A stretch of DNA of 64,000 nt from Botryllus schlosseri (lineage: Eukaryota): assembly GCA_051294905.1 (NCBI GenBank), contig CM119371.1, forward strand, positions 36,768,001 through 36,832,000, read 5' to 3'. Below, in pieces: positions 49,398 through 51,710 of the stretch. Numbering within the stretch: the stretch's first letter is position 1; every line of letters begins with the position of its first letter. The notes below the pieces were generated by a model. That model was given only the letters and a program-made list of their open reading frames with translations. It was not told the origin of the DNA and did not search any database. Made by a program: the position numbers and the translations under genes.

Positions 49398-49452
49398 ATG
49401 AGCTCCAGGATTATCGTCTTTCTCGTCGTGGTATCAATCGTGTTCAACCAAG
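49398..49452 (+). CDS. Defensin-like secreted peptide gene 2, exon 1 (signal peptide MSSRIIVFLVVVSIVFNQ)
   Basis: Kozak-like gcaccATG, hydrophobic core, donor AG|gtaaat, phase 1. Confidence 0.85.
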
Positions 49453-49528
49453 GTAAATATCTTTCTTTCATTGACATGACCACCCTACCTTGTGTTAGGC
49501 CCATGTTAGTCGTTTTTCATCATTTTAG

Positions 49529-49618
49529 TATCGGCCAATCCGAACTGCGTGGCGAATGGACACGGGACCTGCAAGAGATATTCGGCCGGCTGTATGCAGG
49601 GATGGTTAGGCGGTATCG
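49529..49618 (+). CDS. Defensin-like gene 2, exon 2 (VSANPNCVANGHGTCKRYSAGCMQGWLGGI)
   Basis: Acceptor tttttcatcattttag after a 76-nt intron; donor G|gtgagt; open in the spliced frame; Cys1-3. Confidence 0.85.
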
Positions 49619-49837
49619 GTGAGTTTATATTATTATAGTCTAATGCCCAGTATAGCTTTATAGTCGAGACGTATAGTCTATTCCAGAGGTCTCAAGCACG
49701 CGGCGCGCGGCCAGCTTTCTTCTACCTTTCAGTCTGAATACCAAAGCAACTGTGATGCATGTCGGCTGCCCTAGTTCTTCAGAAGACAAATTACGATACA
49801 TATCCGATCCAGATTTAGAAATCCCCGTCGTCGCTGG

Positions 49838-51086
49838 CAGAGGTGGTCAGTAACGAAGTACTTCTACTTTTTCTAAGTACTCAAGTAGTTTTCCTCTACT
49901 TCTGTTACTTACTCAAGTAGATCCGATTTTCGCTACTTCGACTTCTACTTCGTAAGATTTTGTGATCTACTTTGTGATCCTGATTGGAAGATAGCCTGAT
50001 AAATTTTGGGGCTGTTTTCATGGAATATCAACATTTAATTTTCACAAAAGTTGAGTAAAGCCAAGAATTTTCGTCGCGCTTCGCGCCGAGTGGTTACGGG
50101 GTCACCAGTATGATTTTATGAAAGTATCGGTGAATATAATTTAGGTCGCGGGTTGGCGTGGTTTAGTTTACACCACATTGTTGCCCTTCGCCCATATGAA
50201 ATAATTCATCACAGTAGATATGGCTCATCATAACGTTTGAAACTGATGTTTCGCAATCTAGCATTTACTTGTCATATCGTAATCTAGCATGTCCATGGCG
50301 TGTCCTAATCTGGAAACGTTGACTCTGACTTTTATTTTAGAGCTGTTTTAGCACACCACCTTTAAAACTTCCTGGACTAAAGGCATGAAATACAAGCTCC
50401 ACCTTTAGAAGTAGTAGGCCCTATTTATATTTCACTTTTAATTCCTAGTATCATATACTTTGAGTCAAAATTAATATATGTTCTTTTGTCTGGATAACAT
50501 ACATTGTTGAAGTATAAAAGCAAGTGTAGTAATGCCTTTAATATCCGGAAATAATGCCAAACGATATGGCATTTTTACGGTCCACCATATTTTTTATTAA
50601 CGTTTACTGATCGCAAAAAGTGTTTACACCGTATCCTATGCGACTTCTCCGTATTGCTCTTCGGCTAAACTACGGGCCTTACAATATGGGGGATGGCGTC
50701 GTACCATGGTATTTTCTAAAACATGCTATTCGAGAAAACAGAGGATTAGTATCGCATTTTCACAATACTATCATGATGTTGATGAATGCTTATTGCTTAT
50801 GCTATCGAAATTTGGATACCTGTTGGTATGCATCAATATGAATCGAGCTCGTCACCTTTCGCATAGCTCAATTTGCACCTTTTTACAATCCATGTGAACG
50901 AATTAGGATCGTTTTCTCAACTACTTACTTACTTGAGTACTTTTAAAGTCAGTCAATTATACTTCTACTTCAAGTAGTTTAAAGTTGCTTATGGAAGAAG
51001 GACTTCTACTCGTACTTGAGTAGATTTTTTCGTCGCTACTTCTACTTCTACTTGAGTAGCTTTCTTGACTACTTTGACCACCTCTG
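49838..51086. mobile_element. hAT-type MITE family A (TACTT-rich ends) in intron 2 of gene 2
   Basis: TIR cagaggtggtca/tgaccacctctg; perfect 8-bp TSD gtcgctgg. Confidence 0.93.
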
Positions 51087-51229
51087 GTCGCTGGATAATA
51101 GTCACTTCCAACCCGAACAAACGAAGGAAAGCGCGTACCGTTTCCCGTTCCCAATCGCCGGTTATTCAAATAGTGACCAGCACCGCATTGTACACGCGGC
51201 TCAATGAGTTTATTTTCCCTGTTTTCCAG

Positions 51230-51297
51230 GCCAAGAATGTCCACAACCGCTGCTGTGCTGCAGACATCTACCTACCATTGCCGAAGACGCAGAAAAG
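51230..51297 (+). CDS. Defensin-like gene 2, exon 3 (GQECPQPLLCCRHLPTIAEDAEK)
   Basis: Strong acceptor ttttccctgttttccag; the phase-1 join completes the six-Cys pattern; donor AAG|gtgcga. Confidence 0.82.
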
Positions 51298-51313
51298 GTG
51301 CGAGGTCCTAGCT

Positions 51314-51600
51314 CAGTGGTTCTCAAACTTTTTTGAACACACCCCCCGTATCGTCGTATCACAAAATGCTACGAGAACGCTGGCAGTCCCAACGGATAGT
51401 TTGATGGCATGGGTTATGACTGTTGATAAGAGTTCTTAAATATGAAATTCGGACTAAACACACAGTAATAACTATAAATTAGAGGGAAATCGCGCCGGGC
51501 ACGGAAACTTTTTCAGTAGATCGTAGCTTCGCCCCCCCCCCCCCCCTTCAGATGATTTCACGCCCCCAAGGGGGGGGCGCCCCCAGTTTGAGAAGCACTG
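51314..51600. mobile_element. Charlie-like hAT MITE, 287 bp
   Basis: TIR cagtggttctcaaact/agtttgagaagcactg; perfect TSD tcctagct. Confidence 0.92.
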
Positions 51601-51689
51601 TCCTAGCTTAATGTATCACATGTGACAAACCAATTTATAAAGATAGCGCTGCATGGTTGCCTATTGCTTATATACTTTGAATTTTGTAG

Positions 51690-51710
51690 TGGGGTGGTGC
51701 CGTATCGTAA
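51690..51710 (+). CDS. Defensin-like gene 2, candidate terminal exon (WGGAVS-stop)
   Basis: Plausible acceptor just downstream of the MITE (tttgaattttgtag), phase 0. The intron would be about 97 nt without the MITE. Alternative acceptors exist. Confidence 0.4.
   Translation, partial: WGGAVS

Follow-up and report, generated by a model that had tools for sequence, protein, structure and literature searches.

A tandemly amplified family of predicted secreted six-cysteine peptides in Botryllus schlosseri, with a core that may resemble a remodelled EGF module

The T gene and its family

The genome of the tunicate Botryllus schlosseri (assembly GCA_051294905.1) was searched in full (495.5 Mb, 219 contigs) for relatives of a small gene, here named T, which lies on the forward strand of a 64,000-nucleotide stretch of contig CM119371.1, abbreviated C1 (C1:36768001-36832000). 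This whole stretch is referred to as the window and, unless a contig is named, positions are those of the window. A sequence-only reading had placed there a complete precursor of beta-defensin or crotamine pattern, assembled from small exons. The present analysis indicates that T is very probably a real gene and that it belongs to a family of secreted peptides, which appears to be lineage-restricted and unannotated. Seven loci within about 100 kb make up this family and fall into three lineages, namely A (five near-identical copies), T (a single, diverged copy) and Psi (an interrupted copy). The six-cysteine core of the peptides may be a remodelled epidermal growth factor (EGF) module, while a defensin interpretation is possible but weaker.

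Exons 1 to 3 of T were found with GT-AG borders and could be read as first described. Joined by their coordinates to the last exon that had been proposed (51690-51710), they give 234 bases with no internal stop, and the spliced product is exactly the protein of the sequence-only reading, with the spacing C-x7-C-x6-C-x11-C-x5-CC and G-T-C at the second cysteine (Cys2). The features of T up to its third exon are the following:

49319..49326, plus strand: TATA box, about 72 nt 5′ of the ATG; the same TATATAA(A)GC motif and following 5′ untranslated region (5′UTR) are found in A and Psi
49398..49452, plus strand: coding part of exon 1, with the ATG at 49398 and the border AAG/gtaaat; encodes the first 18 residues of the signal peptide and ends in phase 1
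49453..49528, plus strand: intron 1, 76 nt, gt..ag, phase 1, ending 6 codons before Cys1
49529..49618, plus strand: exon 2, 90 nt, phase 1-1, with the borders ttag/TA and TCG/gtgagt
49619..51229, plus strand: intron 2, 1611 nt, gt..ag, phase 1, between Cys3 and Cys4
51230..51297, plus strand: exon 3, with the borders ccag/GC and AAG/gtgcga; encodes Cys4-x5-Cys5Cys6 and an acidic tail, with phase 0 at the GT donor and no stop

Exon 2 encodes the end of the signal peptide with the predicted cleavage after V-S-A, the cysteines Cys1 to Cys3, and the motifs NGHGTC and C-x2-G-W-x-G.

The TATA box, both intron positions with their phases (1 and 1) and all six cysteines are kept in each of the three lineages, the position and phase of intron 1 being identical in T, the A copies and Psi. 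These lineages are well separated, with a synonymous divergence (dS) of 0.47-1.02 between them and of 0.69-1.02 between T and the other two. Because three lineages as diverged as these keep the cysteines, the intron positions and the phases, the exon frame is not a product of chance. When T is compared with the paralogue A1, exon 1 is 84% identical at the DNA level, and identity is 77% over the 100 nt that precede the ATG but only 41% from -300 to -100. The homologue of intron 2 in A1 measures 679 nt.

The family is confined to one place in the genome. Two whole-genome DNA searches each returned seven matches, all seven within C1:36.75-36.85 Mb, and a protein search of the genome with exon 2 gave eight matches at E values of 10 or less, seven of them inside the cluster. 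The eighth, on another contig (E 2.4), contains an internal TGA and was discarded. Four of the five A copies lie in the window, on the strand opposite to T:

14308..15277, minus strand: paralogue A1, 68 codons in 3 coding exons; acceptor 3 is AAG
22501..23470, minus strand: paralogue A2; residue 3 is Arg
34194..35163, minus strand: paralogue A3; coding sequence identical to that of A1
43358..44327, minus strand: paralogue A4; residue 3 is Tyr, with one Asn-to-Asp change; head-to-head with T

All four have intact frames of 68 codons and GT-AG introns, with the same intron positions and phases as in T. At the third acceptor A1 has AAG, and A2 to A4 have CAG. Just upstream of the window lies the fifth copy, whose three exons were all recovered by tblastn, around a longer intron 2. 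In the window the A copies occupy tandem units of about 8.2-11.7 kb (6285-46193), 99.3-99.8% identical to one another, with one gene per unit. One member of the family has been amplified in tandem to five copies, and very recently so; the identity of 99.3-99.8% among the five copies points to recent selection for dosage.

The lengths of the tandem units vary through internal insertions and deletions, and the fifth unit lies upstream of the window. The coding differences among the four A copies of the window are all nonsynonymous (3 out of 3). They concern residue 3 of the signal peptide, which is Cys, Arg, Cys and Tyr in A1 to A4 (codon 3 at 15271-15269, 23464-23462, 35157-35155 and 44321-44319, respectively, on the minus strand), and the Asn-to-Asp change in the mature part of A4.

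The Psi locus lies downstream of the window, and its exon 2 is split by 13,995 bp (C1:36836083-36850078). At its two ends this insert carries the same sequence in opposite orientations, 94.6% identical over at least 855 nt, and it may be an inverted duplication or else a large transposon bounded by long inverted ends.

Precursor, product and surrounding repeats

The last exon of the sequence-only reading, with its acceptor at 51689/51690, is probably wrong, as A1 lacks an AG at the corresponding place. What is conserved in both T and A1 is the donor context of exon 3, a “tttcag/TGATA” block at 51766/51767 and the block of 3′UTR which follows this acceptor. In the A copies, the stop codon lies inside exon 3, a GT donor occurs a few bases further on, and the “tttcag/TGATA” acceptor is found further downstream. 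In both T and Psi, exon 3 is open into its donor, and their stop must therefore be supplied by the exon that follows. If the conserved acceptor is used, TGA becomes the first codon after exon 3, which gives a precursor of 71 rather than 77 residues. The preferred end of the gene, a choice based solely on conservation between T and A1, would be as follows:

51298..51766, plus strand: preferred intron 3, a predicted junction whose donor and acceptor blocks are kept in T and A1
51767..51866, plus strand: preferred last exon, with the TGA stop at 51767-51769, followed by the 3′UTR up to an ATTAAA signal at 51861-51866

Hence the T precursor most likely has 71 residues and would end with the acidic tail.

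The proposal that the product is secreted is supported by the sequence. The 21-residue N-terminal segment contains one Arg, a hydrophobic core of 12 residues (mean Kyte-Doolittle value 3.59) and V-S-A before the predicted cut. In addition, the signal peptide is strongly constrained, with ratios of nonsynonymous to synonymous divergence (dN/dS) of 0.03-0.20 (0.15 for T-A1, 0.20 for T-Psi and 0.03 for A-Psi). The mature part gives dN/dS values of 0.45-0.79 overall, including 0.61 for T-A1 and 0.45 for T-Psi. The sequence features support a T product made of a 21-residue signal peptide followed by a secreted six-cysteine peptide of 50 residues; across the family, the mature six-cysteine product would span 47-50 residues.

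Other properties first attributed to the peptide hold for T in part or for some lineages. The “mildly cationic” character applies to the core of T (net charge +1, isoelectric point 7.8), but the whole mature T peptide has a net charge of 0, and the corresponding values are -2 for the five amplified A copies and -6 for Psi. Similarly, an acidic tail is indeed present in T and in Psi, where the homologue of exon 3 encodes C-x5-CC and the same tail motif, T-I-A-E-D, without a stop, but it is removed by the earlier stop in the A copies, in which exon 3 encodes C-x6-CC and ends within the exon. An acidic C-terminal propiece occurs in several antimicrobial precursors of ascidians, such as those of the clavanin and styelin cDNAs, although no passage confirming it was found.

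Both longer introns of T contain insertions. The larger one, which accounts for most of the length of intron 2, has the properties of a transposon of the hAT type:

49838..51087, no strand assigned: hAT-like non-autonomous transposon of 1250 bp inside intron 2, with CAGAGGTGGTCA inverted ends

A target duplication of 8 bp (49830-49837 and 51088-51095) flanks this element. A second copy, 84.7% identical to its right part (50339-51087), lies at 58666-59415, and the match ends exactly at the inverted end. Without the element, intron 2 would measure about 353 nt. Intron 3 carries a short inverted-repeat insertion resembling a miniature inverted-repeat transposable element. Since the transposon insertions sit in introns, the exons of T are untouched.

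Several other repeats surround the gene. Upstream, about 620 bp (48621-49242) match their own reverse complement with 86.5% identity, a foldback or palindrome-like stretch which stops about 80 bp before the TATA box of T. A block of 0.5 kb found in every tandem unit (7883-8374) recurs with 84% identity at 47735-48242, about 1.2 kb upstream of T, and neither occurrence contains a cysteine-rich frame of note. Downstream of T, a direct repeat of about 1.75 kb (56381-58108 and 61006-62749) is 90.9% identical.

Similarity to EGF modules and alternative readings

Among the Pfam families, exon 2 gave matches below the cut-offs to EGF modules and to DUF7949 only, the EGF matches having E values of 0.0065 (A) and 0.061 (T) for EGF_Teneurin (PF23106) and of 0.037 for the JAG1-like EGF2 family, an atypical Jagged EGF. 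To examine the EGF link, an alignment of the peptide family (T, A1, A4 and Psi) was compared by hhalign with 12 EGF_Teneurin repeats of the same genome. The local comparison gave a probability of 87.5, a P value of 3.6e-6 and a score of 26.6 over 19 gapless columns, which correspond to residues 7-25 of the mature peptide and bring both x-G-H-G-x-C and C-x2-G-W-x-G into register. The observed score was reached by 1 of 200 column shuffles in the local mode and by none of 200 in the global mode (global score 23.4), and the reversed alignment scored 15.8 and 7.0, respectively. Control alignments were built from exons of the same genome encoding LDL-receptor class A (LDLa, 12 exons), Kunitz (12) and WAP (4) modules, a set that comprises no defensin alignment. 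Apart from the comparison of the family with EGF, the five alignments (family, EGF, LDLa, Kunitz and WAP) allow nine pairings, and these scored 7.3-12.7, with probabilities of 2.9 or less.

In this alignment, Cys2, Cys3 and Cys4 of the family correspond to C3, C5 and C6 of the EGF module. The position of the EGF C4 is occupied by Ala, Ser or Asp, that of C1 would coincide with the site of signal cleavage, and EGF has no counterpart of the C-x5/6-CC tail. The likeness to the EGF repeats of teneurin and tenascin type therefore extends to x-G-H-G-x-C, the six-residue spacer and C-x2-G-W-x-G, gapless and in register, as well as to the phase 1-1 exon and the nature of a small secreted disulfide-rich module. 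Exons encoding EGF modules are usually of phase 1-1, and exon 2 has a phase-1 intron on either side, with the cysteine equivalent to C6 on the next exon. Unlike these repeats, the family lacks C1 and C4, adds two adjacent cysteines on a separate 3′ exon, and presents the module alone after a signal peptide instead of in a repeat array. A motif scan of the window and of about 66 kb of flanking sequence found no other EGF-like exon.

Searches for relatives outside the genome were made in protein, PDB and metagenome collections with exon 2 only (31 residues). A word-indexed protein search returned no match for the exon-2 frame of T (23-74 residues) or that of A (47-151). A profile of exon 2 run against 1.84 billion representative proteins found no relative beyond one match, P0001, a repeat-like protein of 181 residues which matches profile positions 1-14 only and was rejected as an artefact. 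The family appears unannotated because no member of it turned up among these representatives; gene finders routinely overlook small secreted peptides rich in cysteine. The PDB sequences gave no match at E values of 10 or less. Two metagenome loci of the JGI were rejected as chance matches, since their GC content is 54-56% and they have neither the GHG nor the GW motif. The nearest neighbours in a protein Atlas, which serve as leads only, scored 0.81-0.85, below the mark of 0.9, with EGF clusters at ranks 5 and 30. The family DUF7949 (PF25820), suggested by exon-2 E values of 0.022 and 0.062, was dropped, as its two matches in the genome lie near E 0.9 and none is over the cut-off or in the cluster.

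T may be regarded as a secreted-peptide gene of a lineage-restricted family whose core resembles a remodelled EGF module, an interpretation which we consider to have about an even chance of being correct. Several points weigh against it. The EGF_Teneurin matches of exon 2 reach 17.0 bits (A) and 13.8 bits (T), below the Pfam cut-off of 24.3, with exon 2 only as the query. Of the six cysteines that define an EGF module, which pair C1-C3, C2-C4 and C5-C6, the family lacks two, and the global alignment needs an insertion of 3 residues before Cys4. EGF was chosen for the hhalign comparison after the Pfam hint, the P value becomes borderline once corrected for about 25,000 families, and the family alignment is shallow, with an effective number of sequences (Neff) of 1.5. 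The searches outside this genome found no relative that could add constraint from other species, and function is deduced solely from the behaviour of the gene family. Lastly, a C-C-C-C-CC framework is typical of beta-defensin-like peptides.

The first alternative is that the secreted peptide is an orphan, rich in cysteine and folded in its own way, whose likenesses to EGF and to defensins are motif coincidences in a short Gly/Cys-rich sequence. This is unlikely, although it keeps some weight: the protein and PDB searches, made with exon 2 only, found nothing except the repeat artefact, all Pfam matches are below their cut-offs, and the Atlas neighbours reach just 0.81-0.85. However, coincidence does not readily explain an EGF similarity which only 1 of 200 composition-preserving shuffles reached and which outscores all nine cross-family controls, or the alignment of two separate EGF signature motifs in register and without a gap.

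The second alternative, close to what was first proposed for the locus, is that the genes form a true beta-defensin-like (trans-defensin) family with a three-stranded sheet, the disulfides C1-C5, C2-C4 and C3-C6, and a role in host defence, the EGF motifs being convergent. This we regard as rather improbable. The C-C-C-C-CC framework (x7, x6, x11 and x5 in T; x7, x6, x11 and x6 in A) and the Gly-x-Cys at Cys2 agree with it. Crotamine has a spacing near that of T and A, although this spacing coincides with the consensus of neither the beta-defensins nor the big defensins. The last residues of the A copies, CC-K-K-P, are like those of a human beta-defensin, and the genes are clustered in tandem. 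The cysteine region is closely preceded in T, A and Psi by a phase-1 intron, a feature which the genes of beta- and big-defensins share. Such an intron is not specific to defensins, as shuffled extracellular modules generally have one before the module. In a passage of PMC7203481, the beta- and big-defensin genes are described with a phase-1 intron before the cysteine region and with the cysteine-rich module on the 3′ exon. The conserved UTRs and signal peptide, next to a variable mature part, also recall the snake beta-defensin genes, for which a passage of PMC9952678 describes the same contrast.

The remaining evidence speaks against the defensin alternative. The Pfam search with the three exon peptides gave no defensin family at E values of 10 or less, and PF00711 run over the genome gave 13 weak matches at that threshold, all of them below the cut-off and outside the cluster, although both tests are weakened by the splitting of the cysteine domain over two exons. 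All three lineages have a second phase-1 intron, between Cys3 and Cys4, whereas the defensin module lies on one exon. The family is neutral to anionic, not cationic, and its core is specifically similar to EGF repeats, a likeness which implies a disulfide map different from that of defensins. Moreover, section 8 of PMC7203481 reports big defensins as absent from Urochordata, so that a defensin in a tunicate would be news and its prior probability is lowered. An AlphaFold model of exon 2 alone (31 residues, a partial domain) had a mean predicted local distance difference test (pLDDT) value of 50.7 and a predicted template modelling (pTM) score of 0.16, values too low to be informative for either fold. 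Together, the family shares with the beta-defensins, the big defensins' C-terminal domain and crotamine the six cysteines ending in CC, the Gly-x-Cys at Cys2 and the phase-1 intron before the cysteines, but differs from them in the splitting of the domain by a second phase-1 intron, in its neutral to anionic charge and in the lack of a profile match.

The last alternative, that T is silent or decaying, a duplicate with a frame preserved by chance or through recent origin, while only the A copies are expressed, is very improbable: T is single, has transposon insertions in both longer introns, has a clearly broken relative in Psi (the 13,995-bp insertion) and shows mature-part dN/dS values of 0.61 and 0.45 against A1 and Psi, but its frame, start, coding splice sites, TATA box and six cysteines are intact despite a dS of 0.69-1.02, and the insertions, for which target-site duplications are reported, lie in introns and leave the exons intact.

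Known ascidian peptides provide no closer relative. The turgencins and St-CRPs of Synoicum turgens are also small six-cysteine ascidian peptides, and the St-CRPs are net neutral like T. According to the passages of PMC13208793 that describe them, the turgencins have 35-36 residues, the disulfides C1-C6, C2-C5 and C3-C4 and an amidated end, and the St-CRPs have 18-19 residues and a CC-C-C-CC framework, and are likewise amidated; the two groups thus differ from the present family in length and framework and have no motifs in common with it. The styelins, clavanins, halocidin and plicatamide are linear or not six-cysteine peptides (PMC10608444), and the tunicate peptide list in that source, as far as its relevant passages go, contains no six-cysteine family like this one. 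A full-text literature search for three peptide motifs of the family gave no match, and no matching peptide family was found in the published literature searched.

Elsewhere in the genome, two glycosyl hydrolase family 6 loci over the cut-off were found on another contig (C9:15025585-15068854), with open frames of 531 and 545 residues; these presumably fit the tunicate cellulose synthase fusion. The genome gave no match for PF03552, the plant-type cellulose synthase.

Proposed origin and role

If the core of the peptide is indeed a remodelled EGF module, the family could have arisen when an EGF-module exon of phase 1-1 was placed behind a signal-peptide exon. Two cysteines of the module would then have been lost, C1, whose position is now the signal cleavage site, and C4, now Ala, Ser or Asp, while a new 3′ exon encoding C-x5/6-CC would have been gained. 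The resulting peptide would have three disulfides. The Cys3-Cys4 bond, which would correspond to the C5-C6 pair of EGF, would close an EGF-like G-W hairpin, while Cys5 and Cys6 at the C-terminal end would be the partners of Cys1 and Cys2. The EGF and defensin interpretations thus predict different disulfide maps.

The secreted peptide may act extracellularly as a compact binder, in defence or in cell signalling. It would not be a cationic membrane-disrupting defensin, since the amplified A copies are anionic. Because of the fivefold recent amplification, the fast-evolving mature part and the constrained signal peptide, traits usual in genes for defence or secretory products, host defence is a first guess for its role.

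The two interpretations differ in what they would mean. There is a small chance that the cluster represents a beta-defensin-like (trans-defensin) gene family, the first in a urochordate, with the module split by a new intron and turned anionic, and such a family would bear on the open question of the origin of vertebrate beta-defensins. If the EGF origin is true, the family would provide a clear case of a new secreted peptide arising by the shuffling of an EGF exon and the rewiring of its disulfides.

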